A DNA stretch of 64,000 nucleotides from a virus (taxonomy: Duplodnaviria; Caudoviricetes). The notes under the pieces were generated by a model. It did not search any database. It had not been told where the DNA came from and saw only the letters and a list, made by a program, of their open reading frames with translations. Position 1 is the stretch's first letter. Each line of letters begins with the position of its first letter. This document shows, one piece after another, positions 2,274 to 59,867 of this stretch. The translations under genes were made by a program, and so were the position numbers. The stretch is from IMG/VR virus record IMGVR_UViG_3300031141_000005, positions 1,965 through 65,964 of that record; one strand, 5' to 3'.

Positions 2274-4526
2274 ATGAGTGGTTTCCCTAAACAATTCATA
2301 CCCGATAGCGAGAAAACGCAAGAGTGGTGTGAGAAGAACATAAATGCTGTAACTAAATTTCTAGAAAACTCTAGCGGTGAAGGTCTTTCTATGTCAGATA
2401 AAGACACGCTTAACTACAAGACATATAACGGAGATTTAGAGTATGAGGACTACTCTTATATAACAGAGCAGTACAATCTTCCTTCTCCAGCTACTATGGC
2501 TAACTATCCTATCACTAGGAATAAGATTGACATACTAACCAATGAGGATTTAGAGAGACCTTTAGATAAAAACGTCTCAGCTATAAACCTAGAAGCTGCT
2601 CTTCGTAGAGAAAAGTTTAAGGTTTCTATTATAGCTAATAAATTACTTGCTGAAATAAATTCAGAAGTAGAGGGTCAGTTTGGTATGGAATTAGAGATGG
2701 ATAACAAGGACTTTCCGATTCCTGATGACATCGACCTATTCATGCGTTACGAATATAAAGAGGTTATTGAAGAATGTGTAAACGACGGACTTGACTATAT
2801 AGTTGAGAAACAGAGACTTAAGGGTTTATTTAAAGAAGGTTTTAGGGATCTATTAATTTCAGCAAAAGAATTCTACAGAATATACATCAAAGATGGTGAC
2901 CCACATGTTCGTAGAGTTGATCCTAGAAACTTTATATACGACAAATCTATATCTACAGATTTCTTAGACGATGCTCAATGGGCTGGTGAAGAGAGATGGC
3001 TTTCTGTAAATGAAGTACTTGATGAGTATAGAGATGAGTTAGATGAGGACGACGTTAGACAACTTGAGGATATGCGTCAAGCAACTACTGACGACTTAAG
3101 TAGATTTAATAGTAGTATTGATTGGGTTGATATAGACGATAACAAATCTTCTAAGATTAGAGTGTTATCCGCTGAATGGAAATCCATCAAAGGAATAAAC
3201 TTTAAGGTCTCAGAAAATAAACACGACCCAGCCAATCCTTTTAAGAAGATGGTTAAGGATGGTTATAAGCCTAGAAAAAACGAAAAAGTTGAAACTAGAT
3301 TCGTAGATGATATTTGGGAAGGTACTTGTATTGGAGGTAAGGTTTACGTTCAATGTCGTAGAAGACCTAATCAAGTTAGATCTGTAGATGATGCAGGTTC
3401 TACTCCATTATCTTACGTAGGTGTAGTTTACAATCATACTACTGGTAAACCAACCAGTCTAGTTGACTTATTGAAGCATATACAAATGCTTTATAATATT
3501 ACTATGTACCATATTGAACTTACCATGGCTCGTGCTGGTGGTAAAGCTGTAGTATATGATGTTGCACAAATGCCTACCAATCTTGGCATGGACATGCAAG
3601 AAGTTATGTACCACATCAAGAACGATGGTATAATCCCTATAAACTCTAAAGACGAAGAGGGTGAAGCTCACTCTTTTAATCAGTTCGGTCAAGTTGACTT
3701 TACCTTATCCGCTTCTGTTCAGCAGTTGATAAACTTAAAGGTTATGCTTGAGCAGACTGCAGGTCAAATATCTGGAGTATCTCCTCAACGAGAAGGTGCT
3801 GTAGGTCAATATGAATACGTTGGGAATGTGCAACGTTCTGTTGTGCAATCATCCTTATCTACCAAAGGATGGTTCTATGTCCATGGCGAGGTTAAAAAGC
3901 GTGTACTGGAGCGAGTAGCTAACCTTATGAAGGTTGCTTGGGCTGGTGGAAAGAAAGCTGCATTCATATTAGGCGATCAAGGGTATAGATTCCTTGAAGT
4001 TCTTCCTGACGTTGCTTTGAATGACTACGGTATATTCATTGGTGATTCTGGTAAAGACGATGCTCTTAAACAAGTTGTTCAACAGATGTCTCAATCTGCT
4101 TTACAGTCAGGTACTATTAGTTTACTAGATACTATTAAAGTTCTTAAGGCTGATACAATGACTGAAGCTCAACATGTCCTTGAACAAGGAATGGAGGCTA
4201 TGCAGAAACAACAAGCCGAGATGCAACAACAGCAACAGCAAATGCAACAAGCTGAGGCTGAAGGCAAACAAGCTGAGATGGAAGGTAAGATGAATCTTAT
4301 GCAAATGGAGATTGATGGGAAGATTAAAGTTGCTGAGATAGCTGCAGAAGCTAGAGTAACATCTCAAGAGATAGCTTCAGATGCTGATAGAGACATAGAG
4401 GATGTTAGAGAGAAAAACAAAGTTTCTTTAGAGACTGTTAAGGCAGATCATAGTTCTCAACAAGCTAAAGATAAGGCTGTAACGGACAAAGAAATAGCGT
4501 CAGTAAAAGGTACGGTTAAAAAGTAA
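2274..4526 (+). CDS. Portal protein
   Basis: 750 aa, directly after TerL; crAss-like N-terminus (FPKQ...EKT.EW), RRVDPR motif and Q-rich coiled-coil C-terminus. Confidence 0.9.
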   Translation: MSGFPKQFIPDSEKTQEWCEKNINAVTKFLENSSGEGLSMSDKDTLNYKTYNGDLEYEDYSYITEQYNLPSPATMANYPITRNKIDILTNEDLERPLDKNVSAINLEAALRREKFKVSIIANKLLAEINSEVEGQFGMELEMDNKDFPIPDDIDLFMRYEYKEVIEECVNDGLDYIVEKQRLKGLFKEGFRDLLISAKEFYRIYIKDGDPHVRRVDPRNFIYDKSISTDFLDDAQWAGEERWLSVNEVLDEYRDELDEDDVRQLEDMRQATTDDLSRFNSSIDWVDIDDNKSSKIRVLSAEWKSIKGINFKVSENKHDPANPFKKMVKDGYKPRKNEKVETRFVDDIWEGTCIGGKVYVQCRRRPNQVRSVDDAGSTPLSYVGVVYNHTTGKPTSLVDLLKHIQMLYNITMYHIELTMARAGGKAVVYDVAQMPTNLGMDMQEVMYHIKNDGIIPINSKDEEGEAHSFNQFGQVDFTLSASVQQLINLKVMLEQTAGQISGVSPQREGAVGQYEYVGNVQRSVVQSSLSTKGWFYVHGEVKKRVLERVANLMKVAWAGGKKAAFILGDQGYRFLEVLPDVALNDYGIFIGDSGKDDALKQVVQQMSQSALQSGTISLLDTIKVLKADTMTEAQHVLEQGMEAMQKQQAEMQQQQQQMQQAEAEGKQAEMEGKMNLMQMEIDGKIKVAEIAAEARVTSQEIASDADRDIEDVREKNKVSLETVKADHSSQQAKDKAVTDKEIASVKGTVKK

Positions 4527-4534
4527 TATATTTG
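4527..4534 (+). promoter_or_regulatory. Bacteroidota -7 promoter element TATATTTG upstream of scaffold/MCP genes
   Basis: Intergenic match to TAnnTTTG; the same 8-mer recurs at 32279, 42491 and 53748(-). No clear -33 element. Confidence 0.5.
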
Positions 4535-4558
4535 TAGCGGGAAATAAAAGCAAACATT

Positions 4559-5581
4559 ATGGCAAACGAAGGAAGTAGTATTATCGATGAGGTTGAAAAC
4601 ACCTCTACCGAATCACAAGAAGTTGGAACGTCAGCATTTGACGCTTCCGCTTTTATGGATGGTGCGGAGATAGCAAAAGAAGAAGTAGAAGTAGAAGAAA
4701 CCTCTAAGGAGGTAGTTTCAGAAACAACCAATACAGATGATGACTCATCTGAGGACGTTGAAGAAGATGATGGATTCTCTTGGGATCAGATCGAAACAGC
4801 TAAAGAAGAGGAACCTGAAGAGGAGACTCCTGAAGCTGTAGTAGAAGATGATAACTGGGATGAAGCTAACGCTGAAACTGAAGCAGAAACTACTGACATC
4901 GATTGGGGTGAGATAGGAACTGAAATAGGTATTGAAGCTGCGACGAGAGAAGAGCTTATAGCTAAAGTAAAGGAAGCTGTCAAGCCTGCTGTAAATGATA
5001 ACGATGTTATCACAAACCTTAAAGGGTTTCTAGAAATGACCGACAAGGATTTAGTTATCGCTGATATGCGAGCAGCTAAATACGAGAAGGAATACATTGA
5101 AGATACTGTAGATAGGTTAGAAGACTCTGGGTTGATGAAAAGAGAAGCTACGATGATTCGTCAGCAACTTAATAAGCACGTTCATTCTGAACAAGACAGA
5201 ATAAGAACTGAAAACAAAGAGACTAAAGACAAAGAAACTAATGAAGCTGCTCAGTCTAAGAAAGACTTACAGAAGTTCATAAAAGGTAAGGACGACTTCT
5301 TCGGAGGTAAGGTCACTACTTTAGAAAAGAAGACATTATATAACTACATCACAAAAGGTGATTTCGCTGGAGATATATTTAAATCTCATGCCAATGTTGC
5401 GGAGGCTGCATTTCTTTGGCGAAACAAGGATAAGATTTTCAAAATGGTTCGTTCGCAAGGCGTTGAACAAGGGAAATCTAAAGTTCTTGACTCTATTACA
5501 TCACCTAGTAGTGGAAACAGAAGCTCTAAAAGCTTTAAGTCCTCAGATAAAGGATTTAATCCTAATAAGTTTATGTCGTAG
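4559..5581 (+). CDS. Acidic scaffold-like protein upstream of MCP (conserved crAss-like gene)
   Basis: Very acidic N-terminal half and helical C-terminal half; lies between portal and MCP. Confidence 0.65.
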   Translation: MANEGSSIIDEVENTSTESQEVGTSAFDASAFMDGAEIAKEEVEVEETSKEVVSETTNTDDDSSEDVEEDDGFSWDQIETAKEEEPEEETPEAVVEDDNWDEANAETEAETTDIDWGEIGTEIGIEAATREELIAKVKEAVKPAVNDNDVITNLKGFLEMTDKDLVIADMRAAKYEKEYIEDTVDRLEDSGLMKREATMIRQQLNKHVHSEQDRIRTENKETKDKETNEAAQSKKDLQKFIKGKDDFFGGKVTTLEKKTLYNYITKGDFAGDIFKSHANVAEAAFLWRNKDKIFKMVRSQGVEQGKSKVLDSITSPSSGNRSSKSFKSSDKGFNPNKFMS

Positions 5582-20083: not shown

Positions 20084-23000
20084 ATGTCAAACGGTTTAGG
20101 TAACGGAGTAAATGCACCAGGAGAAGATATTGAAAACTACGATTCTTCTTTAGATAGTTCAGCAAGTCAACCAGATATACAATCTAACTTAGAGGTTCCT
20201 CAACAGAGGAGCTCTTTTAGTTTAGCGAACATCAACCAACAACAAGCTCCAATGGAGCAGATGGATGCTTGGGGTGGTGCTGTAGATTTAGCTGAACAAC
20301 AACAAAACCTTCCTGATATACCAGAAGTTGGTACTCCAGGTATAGATTACGACATGGGTCATGTTGAGACTATAGGTAGGAGTGTTATGGCTGGGTTTGG
20401 AGATATGTTTAATAGTATGGGTGATATGGTTGACTTCTTAAGTTTTACCCCATCATCTATAGTTTCTAAGCATGTTCTTGGTATAGATACTAATAAGCCT
20501 ATCTCTGATGCGTTCCATAATTTTGGTGACTACCTAGACTCTTATGGTGATACCGTTCCTGGATTAAAAGACATGAGCGAGATTACTTGGGATGATATGT
20601 CTGATCCTAAGTTTTGGGAGACTGGAGTTGCTCGTATGCTTCCGTTCGCTTTATCATTAATGATCCCTTCTACTTTGGCTGCCAAAGGAGCGCAAGCTGC
20701 TATGGGTAGTATGAACTTCCTTAAATCATCTGCGGCTATTGCTAAGGGTGCATCTTCTGTTGGTATTAGATTATCTCAAGCTGCTGCTACAGGATTAATT
20801 AAGAAAGGTATTGCTACTATCGCTGCAGGTTCTACGGCAAACATGCTTGAGGGTGCTGCGCTAGCAGGTGGAGCTATGAATCAAGCCATAGAAGAAGGTG
20901 TAGATCCTAGACTAGCTCATGCAGTTGGTCGTAGAGTCTTTGTAGATAACTTAGCTTCAATGGGTGCTGATATTGTTCAGTATGGATTGTTTACAGGTCA
21001 AGCAAAGATTGGTTCTGCTATCATGAAGACCGTTCCTGGAGCAGCAAAGACTGCTGGTTTGAAGGCTATGAAAGCTGCTGGTATTGGTCCTGTAGTTAAG
21101 CAAGCTTTTAAAGCTATAGGTATGGGTGCTGCCAATGGTATAACTGATGGTGTTGTTGAACAATTCCAAGAGGTTTATCAAGATTGGTCTGTGAACAAGA
21201 ATATAGCTGAAGCTAAAGGAGAAGACTTCCCTACTTACATGGAGTTCTTTATGGCTGACGAACAGAGACCTACAAGGATTATGTCGTTCGCTACTAGTTT
21301 ACTTATGTCTGGTGGTAGTAACTTCATGCAGACAGCTACAGAGAACAAGAGAAAACAAAATACAACTAATCAAGAAAACGCAGATGTACATGATCTTATA
21401 GGGGTCTTTTCAGATAAGGTAGATCAAGAAAGAACGTACAAAGTAAATAAGAAAGTATTTAAAGGTCTCGATAAGAATGGTGTTGCTATCACAGAGGATG
21501 AGGTTATTGAAATCTCTGGTGAGGATATGCAAAATGAGATTCAAGATTCTGCCGCTAGAAAGTTAGCAATGCAAGCTGTAACCAACGGACAAAAAGATTT
21601 GGTTATGGAGGCTTTAGCTATGGAGTTAGAGGATGGTAATATAACTCAAGATAGATACGATTCTTACGTTAGTACTATAGCTGAGGTTGAATCTCAGATG
21701 TCAAAATACCCTGATGGTTCATTTAATAGAATGGAGAAGGCTAATTTAGTTACTGCTGTATGGGCAAAGACTTCTGTAGATAGATCACTTAAGATAGGTG
21801 AGGACGCTAAGAATGCTGAGATTGAGAAGATAAATCTTAATAATATTTTAAGCGAGGAAAATAAGAAGTCTCAGATTGATGCTTTAAATGAGTCGTATAA
21901 TGAAGGGGCTAAATCAAAACAAGCCGCAGCTGATATAATGAAGGATACGGTTAATAGTATCTATGAGTTTAGTAAGAAAAGGGTTGCTGCTGAGAAGTTT
22001 AATAAAACCGACAGACCAAAACTTAATAAACTTGCTGAAAAGGTAAACAACAACGAAGAGTTAACAAAAGAAGAGAACGAATACGTTGCTAGTAATAAAG
22101 ACTTTAGTGGTCATATTAAGAAAGAGTCTTCTAGATTAAGAAGATCAGAAGCTAACAGTAAAGCTCCGAAAGGATTTGCTTATAGTGAAACTCTTGAAGA
22201 TGGTACTCTTATATATGAAGAGGCTGTAGCGAAAGGAGAGCCTGGGAAGGTGTTTAAGTTTAAGGCAGACAAGACTACCGAAATAATAAACAACGACCTA
22301 GGAGATGCTTTAAATAATATAGATAAAGACATTAAGGATGGTGATGTTGTTGGTGACGCTGTTGGTGATAAAGCAGACACTAAAGACTCTAATGATAAAG
22401 ACACCGACAAGGTTGATGATAAAGATAAAGTCGATGGCGACGCTAATGATAAAGCTGATGATAAGGTTGACGACAAAGACCCTACTCCTGACAAACCAAA
22501 AGTTAACGCAACGCCTAGAGCTGCCGAGGTAGCCGAGGAGGAGGGTGTTGATTTATCTAAGGTTGTTGGTACTGGGACTGGTGGAAAGATACGTGTTGGT
22601 GATGTTAGGGCTTATAAATTAAAGAACCCTAACGGTCAATCAAAGCTATTCATGAGACTTGATAGTGCTAAAGTTATGGCTGGATTAGCTCGTGACGCTG
22701 CTAAGAGAATCGCAGGGGATACTGCTTCTGATTTATTTGACATAGCGACAAAGTACTTAAATAACAGAGAGCTAAGAAGGTCTCATACTTTAGACTCAAA
22801 CTCTCACATGGTTCTGTCTGACTATTACAGACGTAAGGTTGTAGATGGAGTTGTGTCTATGGGCTTCATGCCTGAGATATTTACTGCTGCTGGGGTAAGA
22901 GCTGCAGGTATGGCATCTGGTTTAGGTATATTCTTAAACACGGAACTATACAACGAGGAAGCTGTATTCCACGAGAACTTCCACATATTTAGAATGCTTT

Positions 23001-26000
23001 ATGGACACCGTCCTGAAGTAATGGAGATGATGAAAAACATCATAGACCAGCCTATATATGAAGAAATAAAACTTAAGTATTCTAACTTATTGTTAGTACA
23101 GTCTAGCGGTGATGCTCTAAATCTTACCCTAGCGTTAAAACACGCTTCTAGATTAAATAAGGGTGTTATTACAAACATTAGAGACTTCGTAGCAAAGAAC
23201 GGAGGTAGCATGGAGTCTGAGCAGACTATGAAAGATTTCTTAGCGTATGCTATGGAACAAGTAGAAGCTATCGGATATAAGGCATTAGAATCTAAAGATC
23301 AAACAGGAATTCAAGATGAAGCTCTTACTCACTTAGCTGGTAAGTATGGTGCCCTTAATCCTGATCTGTTCTTTAGCGACAAGAAGAAAGCCGACACCCA
23401 TAAGGAAACTTTTGGTAAGTGGTTAGGATTTATTAAAGAGAACTCTACAATAGAAGAGTCTGAAGCTTTGTTTGAAGAAGCTACTGAAGGTCTTTATAAG
23501 AAGACTAATGATTTCTCTTTCTTTGAGAAATTCTCTAAGGTAAAAGAAATTATAGAAAATAATCAAGCTGATTACTCTGGGCTTAGTAAAAACTCCCCAT
23601 CTCAGTCTAAGTATATGACTGCCGAAAGAAAGGCAATCAACGATAGTATAAGAGTTAGTTTAGATAGTAAGCTTAACGTAGCTTACGAAATGGCTGTAGC
23701 TTTCCATGATGAAATACTTGGAGAGGCTAAGAAATCTTCTGAGGATTTAGGAACTAAAGAACTTATAAAGGCTGTAAAAGAAAGAAGAATCTTTCAAGAC
23801 CAAACTCAAGAGGCATTTATTTCATTCGCTAGAGCCGTCCTTTCAGAGATAGCTAAAGATCCTGCTCACGGAAAGAACTCTGAGAAGTACGATAAAACAT
23901 TCAAGATATTGAATGCTAACAAGCACGGAATAATGAACACCATAAAGACTATGTTCTTGTCTGGTTTAAATGTTCAAGAACAGAAAGCTTTAAAGGGTGA
24001 GGAATCAGCAGCAAGTGAAGATGTAGAATCTGAAGACGGAGCATTCGCTGCCGTTATAGATGGTGGTAGTTTAAGATTATCTAGTAAGTTTGGGGGTATT
24101 ATAAAGAACTTCCTTACTTCAGGTAGAGCTGTAAACGGAGAACTAGGAGCTACTAAGAACAACGTATTGAAGCAGATCATAATGGACATAAATTCTGTGT
24201 CTAACCCTGAAGAAATGCAAGCATTAGTAGAGGCTAGAATTGGTTTATTGAAAGGAAACCCAGATAGCTTAACATTCAACGAAGCTATAGCTGCGGAGTT
24301 CTATACATACCTAGATGAGACGCAAGATATAGTTCCAGGAGAATCTATTAAGAGTGCTTATCATGAGCTTTCTGGATTTAAGATAGATAAGCCTTTCGTG
24401 TTTGTTGTAGGTGGGTCTAAAGACTTACTATCTAACACTGACAGGAACTACCAAAAGAGAGCTCTAGACTTTATTAAGTTTGATAAGACTGACTTGATTG
24501 GAATAACTGGAGGTAAGCCTCTGTCTTTGAGTGCTATAAGGGCTCAGGTAGCAAAGAAAATTCATGTATTAAAAAGGTTTGAGAATGCTGACGTGTCTCA
24601 GTTCTCTGTAGTTGATGCTTTCAATAAGAGGATAGAATTCTCTGCAGCCTTATACGGTTTGATGTCTAAAGAAAATGTAACCAAAAGCGATGTAGCTGCG
24701 TTTATTAAAAGACACATACTACCTGAAGGTACTGGTGTTGATGTGTCTTTAAATGAGATTGAAGCTCTTATGATTTTTGATGAGGTTTCTGGACAGAGTT
24801 TAAGCATTGGAGCTTACTTTAGTCAAGAGCGTATCAGTGAAATGTTCTACGACTCTTTATCTTTAAGGACTAGTAGGAATAAGGATAACAAAGTGGAGTT
24901 TGGTTATGAGGCAGCTCAAGATATTATTATAGGAGAGGTTATTAATCCTATGAAAAAGATCACAGGAGACCTTGATAAAAGCGTTGTTAGAGAATTAATA
25001 AAAAGATGGAAAGCTTCTCACGATTCAACAGAATCAGTTAGAGGTTCTATAAGTGTGTATAAAACATCACACGAAAACAAGGGTAGTATTATAGAAGGGG
25101 TAGCTGGTAGTATGGATAACATGCAAGGTGTTAATGACATCTTTAAAGCTGTTGTTACTTCTTACATAGTTTCATCTCAACAGAACCCTGCTGGACAGGT
25201 TAGAATGCCTGAAGGCGATCAAGTGTCTGTACTCGTAAAGAAGTCGGCTCTTGATTACAATGTAGAGTCGTTAGAGAAATTAAAGAAGGATGACCTTCCA
25301 AGATTTAAAAAGCTTTATGGAACTAACCGATATGCCCTTAAAATGGCGGAAGGTAATTGGAAGCTTAATTATAACATACTTGCTGGATTCGATGGAGAGA
25401 ATTCTATAGATTCAAAGAACATGACAGGAACTCAGGTAATGTATTCTGACCTTAGAATGATTCTTTCAGCTTTAGAAACTGGTTCAGATTCTTACAAGCA
25501 AAATATAGGAGATCACTCTGATAAAACAAGAAGATATTACGCTGATGTAGACGCTCTAGGAGCTAGTATTTCTTTTAATGAGTTCTTAGGAAAGACAGAC
25601 CATAACGATGTTACTGTCGAATCATTAGAGGAATATGTTAAGGATTACGCTCCAGGTCTTTATAAAGAACTTGAAGCTATAAAATCTAAGCAAGTTGCGG
25701 AGATGAAGTCTCTAATCAACAAACATAATGATGGTGTTGATAATTTCGATCTTCATTTAGTTATGTCCCCTAGCGTTATCAAGAGTCTTAGAGATTCTGG
25801 GAAGGATATAAAGACTACAGACAACGAAGGAGCTGTAGAAGAAGGTGAAGGTGAATTAGATTTAGCTGGAGATGAAGTACTTAAAGGTTCTTTCAGTGTA
25901 GAATCTATGATGGAAGGCGCTGAAAGAACGCATGAAAAGTTAGGTTCTAATATGGCTGATGTTGTTGTTGCTGGTCTTAATTATGCAGTAAACAAGTATT

Positions 26001-29000
26001 ACCTACAAGACCTTACGGGTGTAGTATCTCAAGACGCTTCATTTACTATGAAGAATAAGAGAGCTACATTACTGATAGCACCTCAAGTGTCTGCATTTCC
26101 AGAACACAGAATGGATGTTATTATGTTTAACGATGTAAAGTTACTAACTCTAGATGGTCTTTCTACTATAAAAACTATAGACGGAACAGTTGTAGAGGTT
26201 ACTGCTGATTTACTAGATTCAGCTTCTTACGTTACGCAAGATATGGCTGACGAGATAACTAACGCATACGGGAATACCGTAGACGTAACGGGATCGTTTA
26301 AGTTTGTTGGTGCAGGGCAGAACACAGACAATGCTGCTATATCATCTTCATTCGGATCTGAACGAAGTAAGTTCTACTTTAAAGGTCATACTGTAGTATT
26401 AGATGAATCATCTATAGGAACTCCACTAGAAGGAGTGTACAAAGCCTTACTAGCAAGAGAAAGGTTATTTAAATCTAAAGGAATTAAAGCTAAGGTTATA
26501 GCCTATGCTGATTCTGGTGTTAAGAAAGGTCACATTAAGGGAATCAACTCTAAGAGTCTTGCTGAATGGGATGCCATGAAGGACGATGACGTTGCTATCA
26601 ATGAGTTTCAAGATAGCTGGTCTTACGACTTGAAGAAAGATACTTACGGATATGATGGTAAATACTTCGGTGTTCAAAATGAACTAGATAAGAATGCAAC
26701 TAGTGCGACTGTAGCTAAACAAGCTGTATCCGCAACTAATATATTCGCTGATCATGAGAATACTGAACTTGCTGCGATGTCTCAAGACTTCTTGTCTTTA
26801 TATGCTCAAGCCTTAGACCAACAATATCAAGAAGGTTCTGGAGGTAAGACGATAGAAGAGTCTGGTTTAGAGAGCGCTAGTTCGGGATCTACATTCCCTA
26901 CCATGACTAGAGCTATGAATGAATTAGCGACCTCGCTTCCATTCGTTACAGATTCTTTAAGTAAGACCGCTACAGCTAAAGTTAAGAAAGACGCTCACAG
27001 ACTTAGAACTACAGGTTCTTTATCTCTTCAAATATCAGATGCCTTATATGGCTATGAGTTTGATGGAGATAATGTAATAGAGACTGACAAATCTTTAAAA
27101 CCTATTAGAATAGAGAACGGTAAAGTACTTCCTGCTGAGGTTGCTATATCTAGTCACATGGCTAGTATGCTTGGCGTTACAGAGAAGGAGCTTGAAGGAG
27201 GTAAAGAAGTTTTCTTCTTTGCTACTAGAATACCAGCTTCATCTGTAGGTTCTACTATATTATTAAAGGTTGCTAGAATATCCCCAACTCAAGGTAACAC
27301 TATAGCTATAAACGCTAAGATGTCTGCCATAATGGGGGCTGATTTAGATGGTGATATGCTTCACCTTAACGCTTGGACTAAGAAGCCTAAAGCTGGTTCT
27401 GTTGATGCAATCAAGAACAAGATGCTTGACAAGCTTAAGCAAATGCACGAACACCCAGAGGTGTTTAAGACATTAATTAAAGAGCTTGAATTTAAGACAG
27501 TAACTAAAGCCACCAACCTAGCCTTATATGGTAACGAGAAAGGTTCTACTGCAGTATACAATGACTTCAATGTATTTGATACTGCTGAGATGTACGAACA
27601 AACTAAGGGTAACGCTCCTATGATTGGTCTTATAGCTTCCACTTCTAATCAATTCAACTACCTAGCTCAAGGAAGTCCTTCTGTTAATTATGGAGGATTA
27701 CCTTTAGTGTTAGTTAAAGGAAGAGAAGAGAAATCTGAAAGATATGATAGGTTAGATTCTAAACTATCCGAAGACGGGGGAGGTACTTACTACGCTTACG
27801 CTAACTACTTGAACCTTATCTTAGATGATGGGAAGTATGGTAACAGAGCTAAGTTTGGATTCAATAAAGGTAGTGGTGCTTCTTTTGGTTTAATGATAAA
27901 GATGGGTATTCATCCAAAGGATATTGCATTATTAATGACGAAAGGTAAGTTAGGTGAGTTACTTAGCATGGATAAGTTACAAGACTACGCTAGAGAGCAA
28001 CTTGGTGTAGAGAAAAGCTTAGCTGGTCATATAAAAACTAACTTCCTAAGTAAAGGAATAGATATAGAGGCTATTATAAAAGGAGACTTAGAGTCTGCTA
28101 TAGCTTTAGCTGTTGTGTTAAAGAGCATATCTAACGATATGTATAGTCTAGGTTCTTATGTTGGGCTTGATAGTAATCTACCTGAGTCTCTAGTAGAGGT
28201 TAAGGAAAGAATAAGAGCAGGTAAGAAAGCTTTAGCTAACCAACCTGAGATAGCTCAGAATGCATTCACAAACAACCCACTAATACTTAGTAAGGTTAAA
28301 TTCTTATCTGACTATGCGGTGAAGTTAGCGTCTGAAGATGTTACAATATCTAACGGCTATAGTGATACTGTAGGTGAGTACATGTTACCTGTAGATGAGA
28401 ATGACTTTGATTCTGTTCAGTTTACTGACGCAGCTAAATTACTTAAAGCCCTTAACTTATCTAGGGTTGCCGCAGAAATGCCTATCAGTATTCGTGATAT
28501 GTTATTTGAGTCAGCGGTATCTGGAGTTTCTAAGACAGCTAATAACGTAGAGTCTAAGAACTTCCTATCTATATTAAATAAACTAGACAATCAAGATTCT
28601 TATTCTGGTGTTACTCAGTTAATAGCTAACTACATCAAGAATAACGAAGACTTTGATAATAACTTATTCATACAACATTTAAGTATGAGAAACTCTACCA
28701 GGTTCTTTACAGGAGGTACTGATATTATTCAGGATTCGTCTGTTGTAGAGTTCGGAATGGATAGAGAGATGTTGTTTGAACTACAAGAGGTTGAACAGAT
28801 AGAAGCTTTAGGTAAGGACTTTGAGAAGTTGCCTTCATGGCTTAAGGATTGGTTTATAGCTAATGACTTTATAGTTTCTGGTTGGGGTTCTAACGAGAAG
28901 CAGTCACTACTACCTTACATGGATAGTGCTTCTATATCGAAAGTGAATGGATACTTTAAGTCTGCGTTCTCAAACGGTAAAGATTTCATAGAACAAACAA

Positions 29001-32000
29001 ACGAAAAAACATCTAATGGCGCTGGAGTTTTAAGCATCAATGAATTGATTGGTGTTGATAGTTCTTCAGGTCATGAGGAAGCTTCTTTCTCTTTAGCTAA
29101 GTTAGTTTACGCTGCTCTTCACGGAGCTAAAGGTCTTAACGCTCACGAGCAAACTCACGAAAACGTTAATTCATTTTCTACTAGCTCTCAAATGGAAAAC
29201 GATACTACTCTTGTTTTTGATGAGCAATTTAGAGAGTTAGGTATGTTGTCTGTAGTTTCTAAACTATCTGACCAACATTCAGAAAACTCTAGAGATGATG
29301 TTAAGTACTTAGCTATATACGGAAACGGTATAGACATGACTCAAGGTCTTAGAGTTACATTAAGTAAAGACGCTTACCTTAACGAGAAGCTTCCTTCTGG
29401 AGTTTCTATAGATTCTTTTGATGATGAAGGTAGAGCTAAATGGGATGAGAAGTACTCTAACTACTTAAGGTCTTTGGATATAGTCAACGAGAAGTTGGAT
29501 CACTTAAATGAAGCTAACATAGAAGACCACGACTACACAATGAACAGGTCTGCTTCTGATAAGAGGTTTGATTACGTATCTAATTTATTCGCCAACATAC
29601 AGAATGAATTATCTTATGAGACTGTAGGATTAACTAAAGAACACTTAGATGAGTTAGCTACCACTCCACTTAGACGATATGTAGAATACAACTATGGATT
29701 ACATATATCTAATAAGCAAATCAAGGATTGGGAGTTAGATCAAGGTAAGAGTTTCGTAGAAGAGATTACAATTAAAGGATTAAATAAAGATATATCTACA
29801 TTGGATTTATGGATGTCTCCAGGGGATTACGGTAAGAACAAACCAACCATGGCTTACATTAATAAAGAAATGAAGATGGAGCATATGGACTTCACTAGAA
29901 ACCTTCACCTTGTAACTAAGGAAATGAATAAGAGGTTAGATGCTTTATATAAAAGTAAAGCTACTGAGACTGGTTTCTTAGGAACTAAAGCTGGTCGTAT
30001 ATTTAATCAGTATTTCGCAGTAGGTAATAGAAAGGTGTCTGAGATACTATACGAAAACCTATTCGTAAGCGAGCACGCAACAAGAAGAAAGGTAGATACG
30101 AAAACGAACAAAGTTACTTATACAGATGCTAGTTCATTACGACTTAATCCTTTATTCTTTAAGAGCGCTAGCATCGTAGGAGATCAAAGTGTTATAGATT
30201 CAGATTCTCAAGCGTTTAAAGACTTATCCGTAGCAGAACAAGAGTACTTAAAGATGTACGTTAAGTACACTTCATTCTATAGAAACTTAATACACGCTAA
30301 GGGATTACTTAAAGGTGGCTCTGATAGAGGTACTAGTTATATTCCAGCATCTACTTCATCTAAGTTTGAAACGATGAGTAGAAGAGGTTTATTTGGATTG
30401 TACTACCAAATGCACAGAGGAGACGAAACTCTTTATGATGTAGTAATTGAGGCTGTAAATCCTTTAACTGGAGACCTTGAGAAGTTAGATTACTTTAGTT
30501 GGAAAGCTTTATATATGCACTCTCCTGAAGATGCTTTATTTACTACAGACTCAGACAACTTAAGAGTTGACTTAGGTCACGGTAATACATTGTCTGGAGC
30601 TCAAAGAATTAAAGCGTTCAGAGATATTACAGCTAAGGCTAAGAAGTTAATGACTAAAGGTAAGGATGATGGTGGTAACACTGTTAGTATATCTTCTCCT
30701 ATTAATGATGTTCTAGGTAATGAGGAATTTGTAAACAGATTTACATCTCACAGATCATCAAAGGCTGGGTACTTAGCGACTCACAACCTTCACCAGTCAC
30801 TTAGGTCTTACATACAAACGTTCATGTTCCAACATGGTAACGCTTACTTAGATGTTAAAGCGAATAAAATTAAGAAGCTTTCTTGGAATATAGATGATAA
30901 TAAAGATGAGTTTGGTGTTGAGTCTATGACTCTTCAGGACGCTACTAAAAACAAGTTTATATTTAAAGGATTTGATAGTAAGAACCTTATGGTTGATGCT
31001 GCTATGTCTCAACTTAGGTTGAGTGGTAGCGAGAATGCTTTAAAGTATATGGACAAAGTTGTTAAGGGTGGTTTAATTAATAAGCAGAGAGGTTTGTCTT
31101 TTAGTGAGTCAAAGAACGAAGCTAGTATAATTAAGTTCTTTACTAACTGGACTATGTATATAGCTTTAGGTTTCAACTTCCCAGCAGCTGTTGGTAACGT
31201 CTTGATAGGTAAGTACAATACTTACAGAGCTCAAGGTGGTGCTGGAGTTATTACTGGAGAGAAAAGATACTTAGGTATAGGTTCTAACGGTATGTTCGAC
31301 AAGAGCATTATGAAGAAATCTAGATTGATGATTGAAGAATTTGGTATCTTAACTTACCGAGCTGAAGAGATTGCTGAAGGTACTAGTGGTTCTGCCATTG
31401 ATGCTTTAATTTTCTCTCCTATGGTACTTGCAGAGAACTGGATTCAACAAGCAGCATTCTTAGGCTCTTTAACTCAAGAGCAGTGGGATAGCTATGAGGT
31501 TCACGAAGGTGAGCTTATGTTTAAGGGAGACATCAAGAAAGAAGATGGTACTCTTAAATATCCTGACGCAAAGAGAGAGTCTCAGCTTTCTAAGATTGAA
31601 ATAGCAAAACTAGAGAGAGATGTAATCAACCTTCAAGGTAGAGGTTACTCAGAGACTGATCAGAGATTCATTCAGATATATGCTCTTAGTAATTCATTCA
31701 TGCAATTCAAGAGGTGGTTCCCTACGTTCTTAGCTGATAGATTTAAATCAGAACACATAGATGACTTAGGTACTATGAGAATAGGTTCAGTGAAAGCTGC
31801 TTCTGACTTTATTTCAGAGATGAGAGCTAATGATATTCCTGTAACGGAATGGAGAGAGCACCTTAAAGATAAGCCTAAACACCTTAAAGATGGTGTTAGT
31901 AGATTATGGAGAGGTACTAAAGGTATCGCTATGCTGTCTATGATTCTATTAGCTATCTCTCATAATAGAGACGATGATGCGCCAGAGGATGAGACTTTAA

Positions 32001-32272
32001 AATTAATGGAGAAACTACTTGGTGATATGCTATTAGTCTTTAACGTTCCTAAGCTTACTTACATGGCTAACATACCAGCCTTAAGTACTGCAGATAACTT
32101 AGCTAAGACAGTGTATCATCTTATCGCTCAAACTGAGTACAAACGTAAAAGTAAGTACGGAGATAAGGGAGATAAGAGATTTGTTTCTAACTTCGCTCAA
32201 CTACTACCTTCTTCATCTAGATTCGTTCTAGAGGAGAATGGTAAGAAGAGTAAGAAAAGATCTATACGATAA
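20084..32272 (+). CDS. Giant virion-packaged RNA polymerase polyprotein (double-psi beta-barrel type) with zincin-like HExxH motif and PSBD-like domain
   Basis: 4062 aa. Catalytic GADLDGD (DLDGD at 27341-27355) preceded by an R-I-P motif; FHENFH (HExxH at 22970-22984). Synteny matches crAss-like vRNAP genes. Confidence 0.85.
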   Translation: MSNGLGNGVNAPGEDIENYDSSLDSSASQPDIQSNLEVPQQRSSFSLANINQQQAPMEQMDAWGGAVDLAEQQQNLPDIPEVGTPGIDYDMGHVETIGRSVMAGFGDMFNSMGDMVDFLSFTPSSIVSKHVLGIDTNKPISDAFHNFGDYLDSYGDTVPGLKDMSEITWDDMSDPKFWETGVARMLPFALSLMIPSTLAAKGAQAAMGSMNFLKSSAAIAKGASSVGIRLSQAAATGLIKKGIATIAAGSTANMLEGAALAGGAMNQAIEEGVDPRLAHAVGRRVFVDNLASMGADIVQYGLFTGQAKIGSAIMKTVPGAAKTAGLKAMKAAGIGPVVKQAFKAIGMGAANGITDGVVEQFQEVYQDWSVNKNIAEAKGEDFPTYMEFFMADEQRPTRIMSFATSLLMSGGSNFMQTATENKRKQNTTNQENADVHDLIGVFSDKVDQERTYKVNKKVFKGLDKNGVAITEDEVIEISGEDMQNEIQDSAARKLAMQAVTNGQKDLVMEALAMELEDGNITQDRYDSYVSTIAEVESQMSKYPDGSFNRMEKANLVTAVWAKTSVDRSLKIGEDAKNAEIEKINLNNILSEENKKSQIDALNESYNEGAKSKQAAADIMKDTVNSIYEFSKKRVAAEKFNKTDRPKLNKLAEKVNNNEELTKEENEYVASNKDFSGHIKKESSRLRRSEANSKAPKGFAYSETLEDGTLIYEEAVAKGEPGKVFKFKADKTTEIINNDLGDALNNIDKDIKDGDVVGDAVGDKADTKDSNDKDTDKVDDKDKVDGDANDKADDKVDDKDPTPDKPKVNATPRAAEVAEEEGVDLSKVVGTGTGGKIRVGDVRAYKLKNPNGQSKLFMRLDSAKVMAGLARDAAKRIAGDTASDLFDIATKYLNNRELRRSHTLDSNSHMVLSDYYRRKVVDGVVSMGFMPEIFTAAGVRAAGMASGLGIFLNTELYNEEAVFHENFHIFRMLYGHRPEVMEMMKNIIDQPIYEEIKLKYSNLLLVQSSGDALNLTLALKHASRLNKGVITNIRDFVAKNGGSMESEQTMKDFLAYAMEQVEAIGYKALESKDQTGIQDEALTHLAGKYGALNPDLFFSDKKKADTHKETFGKWLGFIKENSTIEESEALFEEATEGLYKKTNDFSFFEKFSKVKEIIENNQADYSGLSKNSPSQSKYMTAERKAINDSIRVSLDSKLNVAYEMAVAFHDEILGEAKKSSEDLGTKELIKAVKERRIFQDQTQEAFISFARAVLSEIAKDPAHGKNSEKYDKTFKILNANKHGIMNTIKTMFLSGLNVQEQKALKGEESAASEDVESEDGAFAAVIDGGSLRLSSKFGGIIKNFLTSGRAVNGELGATKNNVLKQIIMDINSVSNPEEMQALVEARIGLLKGNPDSLTFNEAIAAEFYTYLDETQDIVPGESIKSAYHELSGFKIDKPFVFVVGGSKDLLSNTDRNYQKRALDFIKFDKTDLIGITGGKPLSLSAIRAQVAKKIHVLKRFENADVSQFSVVDAFNKRIEFSAALYGLMSKENVTKSDVAAFIKRHILPEGTGVDVSLNEIEALMIFDEVSGQSLSIGAYFSQERISEMFYDSLSLRTSRNKDNKVEFGYEAAQDIIIGEVINPMKKITGDLDKSVVRELIKRWKASHDSTESVRGSISVYKTSHENKGSIIEGVAGSMDNMQGVNDIFKAVVTSYIVSSQQNPAGQVRMPEGDQVSVLVKKSALDYNVESLEKLKKDDLPRFKKLYGTNRYALKMAEGNWKLNYNILAGFDGENSIDSKNMTGTQVMYSDLRMILSALETGSDSYKQNIGDHSDKTRRYYADVDALGASISFNEFLGKTDHNDVTVESLEEYVKDYAPGLYKELEAIKSKQVAEMKSLINKHNDGVDNFDLHLVMSPSVIKSLRDSGKDIKTTDNEGAVEEGEGELDLAGDEVLKGSFSVESMMEGAERTHEKLGSNMADVVVAGLNYAVNKYYLQDLTGVVSQDASFTMKNKRATLLIAPQVSAFPEHRMDVIMFNDVKLLTLDGLSTIKTIDGTVVEVTADLLDSASYVTQDMADEITNAYGNTVDVTGSFKFVGAGQNTDNAAISSSFGSERSKFYFKGHTVVLDESSIGTPLEGVYKALLARERLFKSKGIKAKVIAYADSGVKKGHIKGINSKSLAEWDAMKDDDVAINEFQDSWSYDLKKDTYGYDGKYFGVQNELDKNATSATVAKQAVSATNIFADHENTELAAMSQDFLSLYAQALDQQYQEGSGGKTIEESGLESASSGSTFPTMTRAMNELATSLPFVTDSLSKTATAKVKKDAHRLRTTGSLSLQISDALYGYEFDGDNVIETDKSLKPIRIENGKVLPAEVAISSHMASMLGVTEKELEGGKEVFFFATRIPASSVGSTILLKVARISPTQGNTIAINAKMSAIMGADLDGDMLHLNAWTKKPKAGSVDAIKNKMLDKLKQMHEHPEVFKTLIKELEFKTVTKATNLALYGNEKGSTAVYNDFNVFDTAEMYEQTKGNAPMIGLIASTSNQFNYLAQGSPSVNYGGLPLVLVKGREEKSERYDRLDSKLSEDGGGTYYAYANYLNLILDDGKYGNRAKFGFNKGSGASFGLMIKMGIHPKDIALLMTKGKLGELLSMDKLQDYAREQLGVEKSLAGHIKTNFLSKGIDIEAIIKGDLESAIALAVVLKSISNDMYSLGSYVGLDSNLPESLVEVKERIRAGKKALANQPEIAQNAFTNNPLILSKVKFLSDYAVKLASEDVTISNGYSDTVGEYMLPVDENDFDSVQFTDAAKLLKALNLSRVAAEMPISIRDMLFESAVSGVSKTANNVESKNFLSILNKLDNQDSYSGVTQLIANYIKNNEDFDNNLFIQHLSMRNSTRFFTGGTDIIQDSSVVEFGMDREMLFELQEVEQIEALGKDFEKLPSWLKDWFIANDFIVSGWGSNEKQSLLPYMDSASISKVNGYFKSAFSNGKDFIEQTNEKTSNGAGVLSINELIGVDSSSGHEEASFSLAKLVYAALHGAKGLNAHEQTHENVNSFSTSSQMENDTTLVFDEQFRELGMLSVVSKLSDQHSENSRDDVKYLAIYGNGIDMTQGLRVTLSKDAYLNEKLPSGVSIDSFDDEGRAKWDEKYSNYLRSLDIVNEKLDHLNEANIEDHDYTMNRSASDKRFDYVSNLFANIQNELSYETVGLTKEHLDELATTPLRRYVEYNYGLHISNKQIKDWELDQGKSFVEEITIKGLNKDISTLDLWMSPGDYGKNKPTMAYINKEMKMEHMDFTRNLHLVTKEMNKRLDALYKSKATETGFLGTKAGRIFNQYFAVGNRKVSEILYENLFVSEHATRRKVDTKTNKVTYTDASSLRLNPLFFKSASIVGDQSVIDSDSQAFKDLSVAEQEYLKMYVKYTSFYRNLIHAKGLLKGGSDRGTSYIPASTSSKFETMSRRGLFGLYYQMHRGDETLYDVVIEAVNPLTGDLEKLDYFSWKALYMHSPEDALFTTDSDNLRVDLGHGNTLSGAQRIKAFRDITAKAKKLMTKGKDDGGNTVSISSPINDVLGNEEFVNRFTSHRSSKAGYLATHNLHQSLRSYIQTFMFQHGNAYLDVKANKIKKLSWNIDDNKDEFGVESMTLQDATKNKFIFKGFDSKNLMVDAAMSQLRLSGSENALKYMDKVVKGGLINKQRGLSFSESKNEASIIKFFTNWTMYIALGFNFPAAVGNVLIGKYNTYRAQGGAGVITGEKRYLGIGSNGMFDKSIMKKSRLMIEEFGILTYRAEEIAEGTSGSAIDALIFSPMVLAENWIQQAAFLGSLTQEQWDSYEVHEGELMFKGDIKKEDGTLKYPDAKRESQLSKIEIAKLERDVINLQGRGYSETDQRFIQIYALSNSFMQFKRWFPTFLADRFKSEHIDDLGTMRIGSVKAASDFISEMRANDIPVTEWREHLKDKPKHLKDGVSRLWRGTKGIAMLSMILLAISHNRDDDAPEDETLKLMEKLLGDMLLVFNVPKLTYMANIPALSTADNLAKTVYHLIAQTEYKRKSKYGDKGDKRFVSNFAQLLPSSSRFVLEENGKKSKKRSIR
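22330..22500 (+). repeat. Low-complexity Asp/Lys linker (DK-x-D repeats) within vRNAP
   Basis: DKDIKDGDVVGDAVGDKADTKDSNDKDTDKVDDKDKVDGDANDKADDKVDDKD. Confidence 0.8.
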
Positions 32273-48058: not shown

Positions 48059-48331
48059 TTAAAATCTATCGTTAGTTAATCCTAATTTAATTAGCTCTGT
48101 AACTTTCGTTATAACTATCTTACTTCCTAATGTACCTGAATGGCTTGTTCCTAACCTACCCATAAGGTATTGATTGTACCTTGGATCGTTAAGTAACTCT
48201 ATCGTGTTTCCTATACAGACTTCTTCGCTATGAGATTTCTGTGTCTTATTGTTTAAGACAACCTCCTTAGCTGCTCTCCTGTATTTCTGGTATGTATAGT
48301 CAACACGACAAAGGTACATATTCATTTTCAC
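48059..48331 (-). CDS. Hypothetical protein
   Basis: ORF in operon context. Confidence 0.6.
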   Translation of the reverse strand: MKMNMYLCRVDYTYQKYRRAAKEVVLNNKTQKSHSEEVCIGNTIELLNDPRYNQYLMGRLGTSHSGTLGSKIVITKVTELIKLGLTNDRF

Positions 48332-48855
48332 CTAACTATATTTGCTATTGAGCGTTTCAGCTTGGTGATGTTTCCTTTTAGTTGCATAATCTCTAACTGC
48401 TGTAACCTTAGAGCGTTATCATATAGAGACTTACTTTCCATACCTCTCTTCTGAGCTTCAAACAATTCTATATTGTTTAGTATAACCCTAAAGGCATTAT
48501 CAACCTTAGTCTCTGTTGCCCCGCTCTGGTTGTAGCATTCAAACATCTTACCTCTAAGGCTATAGATAGGTGGTACTACCTTCCTGTCTACAGCTTCCTT
48601 CAGGTCTTTCACATACGGGTCGTACTCTGAATCAGAGCTAACCTTATTGATGGAATGTAATACTGTAGCGTGATCTTTCTTTATAGCTATACCTATATCA
48701 GCTAAGCTGAGTCTTGTATGCTTTCTTAAGCAATAAGCTACCAGTTGTCTGGCAAACATAGGCTGTCTACGTCTAGTCTTAGACATAATCTCTTCCTTAC
48801 TGAGGCTTGTTAATTTCATTACAATACCAAAAGCTTCTTCTATTTCTTCGTTCAT
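48328..48855 (-). CDS. DnaA C-terminal (domain IV-like) HTH protein
   Basis: SK.RR....ARQ...Y..R.HT.LSL..IG....KDHATVLHSI.K. Confidence 0.85.
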   Translation of the reverse strand: MNEEIEEAFGIVMKLTSLSKEEIMSKTRRRQPMFARQLVAYCLRKHTRLSLADIGIAIKKDHATVLHSINKVSSDSEYDPYVKDLKEAVDRKVVPPIYSLRGKMFECYNQSGATETKVDNAFRVILNNIELFEAQKRGMESKSLYDNALRLQQLEIMQLKGNITKLKRSIANIVR

Positions 48856-58733: not shown

Positions 58734-58888
58734 AATTTCTTAATGTTTTTAAGCTTACGCTTCACAGACGCTATATCAGCGTTGTTGTTATTATTAGAAC
58801 GAAGAGATAAGCCCTCTAAAGAGCTTATAACTTCATTCGTAAACTGTTCGTCTGATATGAATATCAGTAATTTCTCTAGATTATTCAT
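58703..58888 (-). CDS. Hypothetical protein
   Basis: Short ORF between the GATase and amidoligase genes. Confidence 0.45.
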   Translation of the reverse strand: MNNLEKLLIFISDEQFTNEVISSLEGLSLRSNNNNNADIASVKRKLKNIKKLCQEKQSTQY

Positions 58889-59867
58889 AGATTTTTTCCT
58901 CTACATTGTTAACACCATAAGACTTATCATATAGCTCATCAAGCAACTTCTCTAAAGCAGTCTCTTGTGTCTCGTCTATGATTCCGTTGTACATTAAATC
59001 TTGCAGTGCTTGACACTGAATCTCTTCTGTGCTCTGTCCTATGTAGTACTCTTCCTTCTCTGTTTTAGAGACATACGATGCATTGTATTTAGCGGTTGCA
59101 TAAGGGTCTTCGTTCTCATTAACGTCCCACTTATTCCATATCTCCTGCTGTTCCTTAGTCACTGTATATTCGTTAGTCTTGTAGTCTGTCCAGTTCTTAA
59201 CCTTAGTACCAACCTCTTGAACATACGTGGTAGGAATATCCTTAGTGTACTCAAGCTTACCATCGTTATAGATGAATAGCTTTTCCTTTTCCACTTCCTC
59301 AATCTTACCACCATCAGGACATATATCTTGCAACCCTTCCTTCAATGAAGAGAAATAGATACCACCCTCAACCTCAAGCATATACAACGGATTGTTACGT
59401 CTGTATATATATAGCTTGTTGTCTGACTCAGTCCATACAGCGTTGATAGTACCACCATGCTCACCTAATGTTAAGTGATCATTGGTGGCTACCATCGCTT
59501 CGTAAATAGCTTTACTATCTACGTCGGGGGAATCGAAACTATACTTCTTAGCAGTGTCTTTGTAATTGGATAACACACCATTATGACACCCAATGTAGGA
59601 GCCTATAATATAAGGGTGTGTGTTCTCAGCAGTCTTTGTACCGTGAGTTGCATACCGTGTATGCCCAATCGCTAGATTTACCTCGCTTACATCAATGAAT
59701 CTATTTAAAAATCCTGATGTTTCTAATGTCTTATATAATCTAGAACCTTCAGGTCCTTCTGTATATAATCCAGTTGAATGTCCACCTCTACTATCGTTAT
59801 CGTTTAGTAGGTGCATTATCTTTGCAATGTTTACACTCTTGCCAGAGTATGCAGTTATACCACACAT
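58881..59867 (-). CDS. Class II (Ntn) glutamine amidotransferase
   Basis: MCGI, SRGGHSTG, GHTRYAT.G, N.HP, HNG and VDS motifs. Confidence 0.92.
   Translation of the reverse strand: MCGITAYSGKSVNIAKIMHLLNDNDSRGGHSTGLYTEGPEGSRLYKTLETSGFLNRFIDVSEVNLAIGHTRYATHGTKTAENTHPYIIGSYIGCHNGVLSNYKDTAKKYSFDSPDVDSKAIYEAMVATNDHLTLGEHGGTINAVWTESDNKLYIYRRNNPLYMLEVEGGIYFSSLKEGLQDICPDGGKIEEVEKEKLFIYNDGKLEYTKDIPTTYVQEVGTKVKNWTDYKTNEYTVTKEQQEIWNKWDVNENEDPYATAKYNASYVSKTEKEEYYIGQSTEEIQCQALQDLMYNGIIDETQETALEKLLDELYDKSYGVNNVEEKIYE

Follow-up and report, generated by a model that had tools for sequence, protein, structure and literature searches.

A peripheral-subunit-binding domain with an altered first helix in a giant protein of a crAss-like phage

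The peripheral-subunit-binding domain (PSBD) is a textbook single-purpose domain, which grips the E1 and E3 components of 2-oxoacid dehydrogenases on their E2 core. What such a domain might do in the middle of a giant phage protein is the question raised by the stretch of viral DNA analyzed here. The stretch (hereafter the window) comprises 64,000 nucleotides, positions 1,965 to 65,964 of the virus record IMGVR_UViG_3300031141_000005, which is 65,964 bases (~66 kb) long and has a CheckV completeness of 97%. According to the list of open reading frames (ORFs) and their translations, the largest ORF of the window (20084..32272, plus strand) encodes a protein of 4,062 amino acids, designated P0001. 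A first-pass annotation of the letters had noticed a segment resembling a PSBD behind a flexible linker of this protein, and had proposed that the injected polyprotein docks on E1/E3 of the host or, alternatively, that the fold now serves to bind nucleic acid or another protein.

Identity and fold of the module

Judged by sequence and by model, residues 807-842 of P0001 (22502..22609; all features of the ORF given here and below lie on the plus strand) are a true PSBD-fold module, as revealed by the Pfam family PF02817 (E3_binding), by matches to PDB sequences, by a fold model and by structure searches. The peptide VNATPRAAEVAEEEGVDLSKVVGTGTGGKIRVGDV, which corresponds to residues 807-841 (nucleotides 22502-22606), falls within the segment reported before (22330-22615). 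In a scan of the whole protein, PF02817 matched residues 807-842 from end to end (profile positions 1-36 of 36) with 35.2 bits (E 1.4e-8), compared to a curated cut-off of 23.7 bits, and isolated pieces of 130 and 41 amino acids reached 39.5 and 43.7 bits, respectively. The check with the hidden Markov model of this family, which had been recommended along with the first proposal, came out in favour of a PSBD. A six-frame scan of the 65,964-base record gave this one PF02817 match only (42.2 bits). When a 51-residue piece was compared with the PDB sequences by phmmer, PSBDs of E2 chains were on top, the best being 1w4i_A (E 2.3e-7).

The PSBD core pattern that was tested, consisting of two alanines in helix 1, (I/V)-D-L, G-x-G, G-(R/K)-I and D-(V/I), is kept in P0001 and in all eight aligned phage copies with two exceptions, a lysine instead of Gly29 in the copy L009 and a proline instead of Gly24 in P0010. 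P0001 itself follows the columns of the E2 chains at Ala813, Ala817, Asp823, Gly829, Gly831, Gly834, Lys835, Ile836, Asp840 and Val841. The flexible linker rich in Asp and Lys that had been described ahead of the domain is present as well. It covers residues 749-805 (22328..22498) and contains 22 aspartates and 11 lysines among its 57 residues, giving a net charge of -11.

With an alignment of 28 rows, in which phage copies were combined with E2 chains and small proteins containing a PSBD, AlphaFold2 predicted the domain with pLDDT values of 87-91 over model residues 11-50. The model has two helices, whose limits are taken from it. Helix 1 (residues 811-820, PRAAEVAEEE; 22514..22543) holds Ala814, Glu815 and Glu818, and helix 2 (residues 838-847; 22595..22624) lies past the GTGTGGKI loop, with Lys835 and Asp840 kept. 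Because E2 PSBDs sat in the alignment, this model and the sequence match are not independent lines of evidence. A single-sequence AlphaFold2 run on residues 781-879 was uninformative (pLDDT 64.8, no helices in the domain). Searching with the AlphaFold2 model, the structural match to PSBDs was recovered by two programs. The top ranks of Foldseek were almost all PSBDs, most of them with a root mean square deviation of ~0.7-1.3 Å over 35-43 columns and probabilities of 0.96-1.00, no E-value reaching 1e-3 because the domain is tiny. In a comparison with 48,161 representative chains by VIA-align, the ten best matches were all PSBDs (Z 4.4-6.2), followed by unrelated chains from Z 4.1 downwards. A likeness to SAP, LEM or Rho_N domains was considered too; none appeared in the best 50 rows of VIA-align, a distant relation being still conceivable, and no Pfam family of the helix-extended-helix (HeH) kind matched the 41- or the 130-residue piece at E ≤1.

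With the PSBDs of E2 chains and E3-binding proteins (1w4i, 1w85 chain I, 1ebd chain C and 2eq9 chain C), the module shares the full-length match to the profile, the long flexible linker upstream and the two parallel helices joined by a GxGxxG(K/R)I loop; in the structural alignment it is 46% identical to 1w4i. It differs from them by an acidic helix 1 without the conserved Lys/Arg, by being embedded in a protein of 4,062 amino acids and by the lack of lipoyl and catalytic domains. PF02817 was the sole family in the Pfam scan of P0001 at E ≤1, and neither the lipoyl domain PF00364 nor the acyltransferase domain PF00198 was found in it at this threshold.

The altered binding face of helix 1

The arginines of helix 1 and of the loop are those which, in Geobacillus stearothermophilus, reportedly form salt bridges with E3 and E1, as Mande et al. 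1996 and Frank et al. 2005 are said to have described. To compare this face, a profile of the phage copies was used, which found 927 proteins at E ≤10 among 8,000 scored candidates. The best 120 of the 927 were taken; together with the protein P0005, 99 of them carried the E2 catalytic motif DH[RK]xxDG and yielded 121 PSBD segments, 79 of which were unique. On the side of the phages, eight rows from five lineages were available.

Column 9 of the alignment, located in the first turn of helix 1, is a lysine or arginine in 68 of the 78 unique E2 rows (87%) compared to none of the eight phage rows. In P0001 this column is occupied by Ala814, with Glu815 and Glu818 as neighbours. If a basic residue at either column 9 or column 10 is counted, 76 of 78 E2 rows (the ten exceptions were read manually) contrast with one of eight phage rows. 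The net charge of helix 1 differed likewise. Its mean was +1.91 in the E2 chains, where only one of 77 rows was negative (minimum -1), while the eight phage rows had values of -3, -3, 0, +1, +1, -2, -2 and -1. P0001, whose helix 1 has four glutamates and a charge of -3, is more negative than any of these 77 E2 rows. The loop position at column 30 (G-R-I) was occupied by a lysine or arginine in 75 of 79 E2 rows and in all phage rows (Lys835 in P0001, arginine in the other seven), and the aspartate at column 35 was found in all 79 E2 rows and all eight phage rows. Compared to their nearest E2 chains, the phage domains were identical at only 3-7 of the 11 positions of helix 1, and at 14-19 of 22-24 positions in the remainder of the domain. 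The divergence from E2 is concentrated in helix 1.

Outside this helix, four phage lineages are identical to E2 chains at 17-19 of 24 positions. The chains nearest to these four share their Pfam list (PF25973, PF07831 and others) with chains whose source is labelled Bacteroidota or Bacteroidia, which fits, as far as sequence can tell, an ultimate origin of the PSBD in Bacteroidota hosts. For the copy in P0001, the nearest E2 was P0005, a chain of unassigned source with Pro/Ala-rich linkers. E2 rows of the Bacteroidota type (P0069, P0077 and others) retain Lys or Arg at column 9.

These data bear on the docking proposed for the injected polyprotein. That a PSBD stands behind a linker in a giant phage protein proved to be real. 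After ejection, it would dock the polyprotein or a cleaved piece of it on the host E3 or E1 of pyruvate or 2-oxoglutarate dehydrogenase, in competition with the E2 of the host. If it were true that the partner is host E3 or E1, there would be a direct physical link from an injected phage protein to central carbon metabolism. Such a role agrees with a bona fide PSBD above the Pfam cut-off, E1/E3 binding being the sole documented function of the fold, with the retention of the loop Lys/Arg (column 30), Pro811, Ile836 and Asp840, and with the identity of 17-19/24 outside helix 1 to Bacteroidota-type E2s, which would fit a capture from the expected host phylum. Against it speaks helix 1, in which the basic residue of column 9 (87% of E2) occurs in none of the eight phage rows although Bacteroidota-type E2 rows such as P0069 and P0077 keep it, and in which P0001, with four glutamates and a charge of -3, lies outside the E2 range. 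Moreover, the PSBD is missing in 18 of 25 related segments and an unrelated mini-domain takes its place in two relatives, as detailed below. By its sequence, the PSBD no longer appears to be shaped like a grip for E1/E3; with Ala814, Glu815 and Glu818 in helix 1, canonical docking is not favoured and we consider it unlikely. The change in helix 1 is common to all five module-bearing lineages. The alternative given by the first-pass annotation, a fold reused for another partner, is the better fit.

On the general properties of PSBDs, PMC10156792 states that the glycine of the loop is accompanied by an arginine without exception, and that the complexes whose structures were solved indicate only one binding interface. 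Proteins with a PSBD outside E2 chains were found in the comparison set as well. Among the best 120 proteins and P0005, 22 lacked the E2 catalytic motif; six of them are E2 fragments according to their Pfam lists, and the remaining 16, which comprise 97-378 residues, contain no recognized domain other than one to three PSBDs (PSBD-only proteins). In the 31 domains of these proteins, Lys/Arg at column 9 was present in five, and the charge of helix 1 was 0 or below in 23. Helix 1 of P0001 (ATPRAAEVAEEEGVDL) and that of the 152-residue protein P0129, which are of the AAELAEE type, are identical at nine of 11 positions. The copy L015 had its best overall match in the 119-residue protein P0045 (24/33), and in the case of P0010 the top four matches were all non-E2 proteins. 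By these likenesses, the module belongs to a non-enzymatic class of PSBDs with a binding face unlike that of E2. What P0001 has in common with the PSBD-only proteins (P0129, P0045, P0090, P0134, P0076 and P0030-P0032) is the altered helix 1, the basic residue at column 9 being mostly absent; what separates it from them is its single copy in a giant multidomain protein, as they are short (97-240 amino acids) and contain one to three copies. In the phage copies and the PSBD-only proteins alike, the binding face is remodelled in a systematic way.

Some of the PSBD-only proteins show phage marks. A PHROGs search with ten small ones gave no family for seven and one weak match each, to families of unknown function, for P0076, P0090 and P0030. 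The cluster look-up of six PSBD-only proteins returned no useful names, and a locus search with P0045 yielded one partial match. Seven proteins (P0030-P0032, P0041, P0049, P0051 and P0054) are 200-240 amino acids long, start with 'MATSA...' and possess two or three tandem PSBDs and an acidic tail without any enzyme domain. On a viral contig of 272,819 bases (L046), an ORF of 285 amino acids (3935-4792, plus strand) has an N-terminus in which features of SAP/HeH and PSBD are mixed ('...KIKGTGKNGNVVKGDLIRALL'). It continues with Lys-rich repeats like the tail of histone H1 and may be a DNA-associated relative of the PSBD.

The reading preferred here, to which we would give a little less than an even chance, is that the PSBD acts as a tethered docking knob whose putative protein partner is not E3 or E1 bound in the canonical mode. 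The Asp/Lys tether of 57 residues would link the N-terminal fifth of P0001 to its HExxH and putative two-barrel RNA polymerase parts. The PSBD, as a small independently folding knob, would keep a protein partner of either the phage or the host close to the peptidase/polymerase part, either within the particle, P0001 being presumably a virion protein, or once P0001 has been ejected. The module would be a PSBD of the non-enzymatic kind rather than a functional version of the grip that E2 has on E1/E3; whatever it docks would be reached by other means than the usual interface with these enzymes. The identity of the partner would inform the role of crAss-like cargo in the first moments of infection, a stage that is almost unexplored.

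Distribution among relatives and selection

At E ≤0.001, only 25 relatives of P0001 were found among 1.84 billion cluster representatives, and a scan of IMG/VR revealed 34 loci in 33 records, the proteins comprising 3,300-4,700 amino acids. PF02817 exceeded its cut-off in seven of the 33 IMG/VR records, always within the giant frame, and reached up to 49 bits in the relatives. To inspect the site of the PSBD, a segment was used that begins 330 residues and ends 60 residues ahead of the HExxH motif, and which was obtainable from 27 loci; 25 were scanned, two loci with the length and motif position of L020 being omitted. In seven of the 25 segments PF02817 was detected, and in 18 no family was above its cut-off. 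The PSBD matches lay at residues 153-210 of the 270-residue segments in five lineages, i.e. at the same position. Database relatives with a PSBD are P0002, P0006 and P0010, while P0003, P0004, P0007, P0009, P0011, P0012, P0015 and P0020 do not possess it.

In two of the latter, P0003 (~829-865) and P0009 (~985-1020), the PSBD site is occupied by a very basic helix-loop-helix with a weak match to Rho_N (18.9 bits, E 0.0015; best E 0.00038), below the cut-off of 24.9 bits. The profile of the phage PSBDs and this Rho_N-like module revealed no relation (hhalign probability 0.09). Other relatives have at this site a charged linker only, or other inserts. The PSBD is therefore an accessory of the family, since relatives lost it or hold a different mini-domain in its place. 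Upstream of the PSBD site, an insert of ~100 residues ('TSDELANDGD...') was observed in P0004, P0009 and P0012, which is absent from P0001. P0012 contains a further insert with 'EGTGGNRITYG', faintly recalling the PSBD loop. A weak NADAR match (21.1 bits, cut-off 35.1) at residues 3344-3444 of P0011 was not seen in P0001.

The history of the PSBD was followed on a maximum-likelihood tree of the polymerase core with 35 rows, from which the two L020-like loci, L034 (no core), L038 (on the contig of P0020), P0002, P0008 and frames below 2,400 amino acids were omitted; L029, which is without its N-terminus, was scored as having no PSBD. All nine PSBD rows fell into one clade of 19 rows (support 100/100). 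The tree requires five changes of the PSBD state (bootstrap range 4-5), and a single change would suffice in no bootstrap tree. A single origin of the PSBD was considered, but parsimony is equivocal in this respect: about six losses are required if the domain is ancestral to the 19-row clade, otherwise about four gains and one loss. The PSBD is too short for a tree of its own. A loop insertion (LIGxGxGKN) is common to L009 and the L011 group across two subclades, and the loop of L015 has the standard length of E2.

Selection was estimated by comparison with a relative that is 87% identical. Over the 41 codons of the PSBD, eight synonymous and five non-synonymous differences without any indel were counted (pN/pS 0.215). 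The respective figures for the whole of P0001 were 812 and 611 over 4,044 aligned codons (pN/pS 0.199), and those for the linker eight and nine over 47 aligned codons (pN/pS 0.277), the linker having indels of 18 and 2 residues. With these low counts, the result is compatible with purifying selection on the PSBD like that on the rest of P0001. The five PSBD lineages are ~36-43% identical in the best aligned segment (core), yet the residues which define the fold are kept. A PSBD under selection in giant, probably ejected phage proteins would mean that this fold has a second life outside metabolism.

Several points weigh against a docking knob for a partner other than E3 or E1. The selection estimate of the PSBD is based on 13 substitutions, and the frequent loss of the domain could mean that it is of little importance. 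Furthermore, the E2 set was not sampled at random, its members having been picked because they resemble the phage profile; a choice of this kind should shrink or blur the contrast and not create it. Lys835, Pro811 and Ile836, which we take to be part of the known E3/E1 interface, are kept in the PSBD of P0001, and hence some affinity for E3 is possible. The weight given to column 9 depends on the role in E3/E1 binding that is reported for Arg135, Arg139 and Arg156 of the Geobacillus stearothermophilus domain. Finally, the virion location of P0001 is deduced from the order of the genes and from published relatives.

It is also conceivable that the PSBD makes contact with nucleic acid like the helix-extended-helix of Rho_N/SAP and thereby ties the polyprotein to the genome of the phage, be it within the capsid or during entry, which appears slightly less probable than docking on E3/E1. 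Rho_N/SAP (PF07498) is similar in being a small two-helix module past a charged linker, and the very basic, weak Rho_N-like motif in P0003 and P0009 stands at the homologous site. In PMC5512222, Rho-N/SAP helix-extended-helix domains are listed as rare predicted binders of double-stranded DNA in polyvalent proteins. Four of the five phage PSBD lineages have a net charge of +2 to +4, and the 285-residue ORF of L046 joins its PSBD/HeH-like N-terminus to Lys-rich repeats. By contrast, the copy in P0001 is approximately neutral (+1 for residues 806-846, -1 for columns 4-39) and combines an acidic helix 1 with a linker of charge -11. The PSBD and Rho_N-like profiles are unrelated (probability 0.09), the Rho_N matches stayed under the cut-off, and in the structure searches the module of P0001 was specifically PSBD-like. 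To our knowledge, nucleic-acid binding has not been reported for any PSBD, which weighs against this role too.

Ranking below both of these roles, and improbable in our view, is a PSBD without any ligand, an ultrafast-folding unit which would aid ejection and ordered refolding as a refolding nucleus or as a knob that prevents backsliding. According to the titles of the PDB entries 1w4e, 1w4h and 2wxc, PSBDs are classic ultrafast folders, and PMC10172136 indicates that the route through the tail requires crassvirus cargo to unfold in part, with refolding inside the cell. That the same linker site holds a PSBD, a Rho_N-like motif or nothing would suit this role, as would the loss of ligand-binding residues. 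On the other hand, the recurrent surface pattern of helix 1 (AAELAEE type), which is common to unrelated small proteins, hints at a conserved binding face. The idea is purely speculative, and it weighs against it that no domain of any kind is known to act as an aid to ejection or refolding. More doubtful again is a folding ratchet, in which microsecond-folding mini-domains in the linkers (PSBD, Rho_N-like) would have no binding role at all but would refold on leaving the tail channel, and in doing so give a direction or an order to the way in which a cargo of 450 kDa passes and refolds.

The least probable reading is evolutionary debris, a captured host fragment drifting in a tolerant linker, since the patchy occurrence with about five gains or losses and the indel-prone linker, which would suit it, are opposed by the frame, length and fold-defining residues kept in five lineages with cores that are only ~36-43% identical, by a pN/pS of 0.215 like that of the rest of the protein, and by Pfam scores of up to 49 bits in relatives.

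The giant protein, its phage and neighbouring genes

Just past the PSBD, a putative zincin-like peptidase module begins. Its candidate zinc site is the motif HENFH (HExxH; residues 963-967, 22970..22984), 121 residues downstream of the PSBD. In an alignment of 13 rows, H963, E964 and H967 are at least 90% conserved, and an HExxH motif was found within the first 1,500 residues of every relative listed except L029, whose frame begins at the edge of the contig. No Pfam family matched the region over HENFH. An Atlas look-up with residues 847-1130 led to unnamed phage clusters, one of which has LPD23 on 18% of its members. By analogy, the region is probably a zincin-like peptidase of the kind used for self-processing in polyvalent proteins. 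In such proteins, according to PMC5512222 (Iyer et al. 2017), virion RNA polymerases (RNAPs) are typically fused to zincin-like HExxH peptidases, which are thought to process the chain.

A second motif, DLDGD (DxDGD; residues 2420-2424, 27341..27355), is a candidate for the metal-binding loop of a two-barrel RNAP. D2420, D2422, G2423, D2424 and H2427 are invariant in the 13-row alignment, as are R2382, P2384 and S2386 upstream, and DxDGD occurs in 27 of the 28 relatives listed. A profile of this alignment placed the DxDGD stretch on the virion RNAP of P23-45 (8h2n/8h2m), though not significantly (E 0.57/0.87); P23-45 carries a tail-fused virion RNAP, as stated in PMC10770324. Look-alikes obtained for residues 2250-2720 with the language model of the Atlas were LEF-9 (0.83) and RNA_pol_Rpb1_2 (0.80/0.79), which are below 0.9 and serve as leads only. 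In Pfam, PHROGs and the PDB sequences, no two-barrel RNAP matched P0001, and neither did 6VR4 (phi14:2 gp66). The label "virion RNAP polyprotein", under which the ORF had been introduced, is plausible and reasonable owing to the HExxH and DxDGD motifs, the gene order and the analogy with described phages, though it stands at the level of motifs only.

Apart from PF02817, searches with P0001 gave little. PHROGs returned no family, and neither megablast nor tblastn of three pieces yielded a match among 50,697 GenBank phage records. A membrane segment was not apparent, as no 19-residue window had a Kyte-Doolittle mean of at least 1.6. P0001 is probably, judging from the analogy with described proteins, a 'polyvalent' protein that is carried in the virion and ejected. 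It resembles the polyvalent proteins of PMC5512222 by the combination of an HExxH peptidase-like and a polymerase motif in one chain. For phage PhicrAss001, PMC10172136 describes three giant RNAP-associated proteins as capsid cargo that partly unfold for the exit through the tail and refold in the cell. With such Crassvirales cargo (PhicrAss001 gp47/gp49/gp50; phi14:2 gp66, 6VR4) P0001 shares the origin from a structural-module gene and the DxDGD motif, and it differs by forming one fused chain of 4,062 amino acids in a 66-kb genome, without a detectable sequence match to 6VR4.

The giant ORF lies between head/portal genes and tail-fibre-like genes. On its 5' side, PHROGs identified a large terminase, a portal, a major head protein and virion structural proteins, and on its 3' side, genes matching tail-fibre families. 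By these genes, the phage is crAss-like with the giant ORF inside its structural module. The portal protein matched 142 records, and in 78 of these the alignment covered at least 80% of the query. Its identity to the portals of crAss-like phages that infect Bacteroides, Flavobacterium and Cellulophaga is 30-32.5%. A host in the genus Flavobacterium, as assumed in the first-pass annotation, was a guess; the nearest portal relatives do infect Bacteroidota, but none of the features examined in the window names a host, and a tRNA scan detected no tRNA gene that could serve as a clue.

The terms 'E3-binding', 'E3 binding' and 'peripheral subunit' do not occur in the main text of PMC5512222, the principal catalogue of domains in polyvalent proteins, whose supplements may list the domain, and a search for literature on PSBDs together with phages gave nothing relevant by title or abstract. 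When two PSBD variants were compared by tblastn with the GenBank phage collection, 27 and 15 records matched, and among the annotated rows and MT835496.1 no PSBD in a phage structural gene was evident; the annotated rows were dihydrolipoamide acyltransferases or, in the case of short partial matches, tail protein V. A word-index search with a single 51-residue PSBD gave one match from 38 candidates. The record MT835496.1 (L003, 5577-21675), a sequence of 159 kb named 'UNVERIFIED: Bacteriophage sp.', contains, at a high GC content, a dihydrolipoyl dehydrogenase gene and after it the gene of an E2 chain that has two lipoyl domains. The locus looks like bacterial rather than phage DNA.

Some further genes of the window were noticed on the minus strand. 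The replication-side module contains a gene with an Amidoligase_2 domain (57333-58733; 73.2 bits) and, adjoining it, a gene for a class-II glutamine amidotransferase (GATase_6; 58881-59867; 41.1 bits). Residues 1-72 of a 175-residue protein (48328-48855) match the C-terminal DNA-binding domain of DnaA (Bac_DnaA_C, 63.7 bits), and its gene shares a minus-strand block with a DnaB-like helicase gene (53784-55085).

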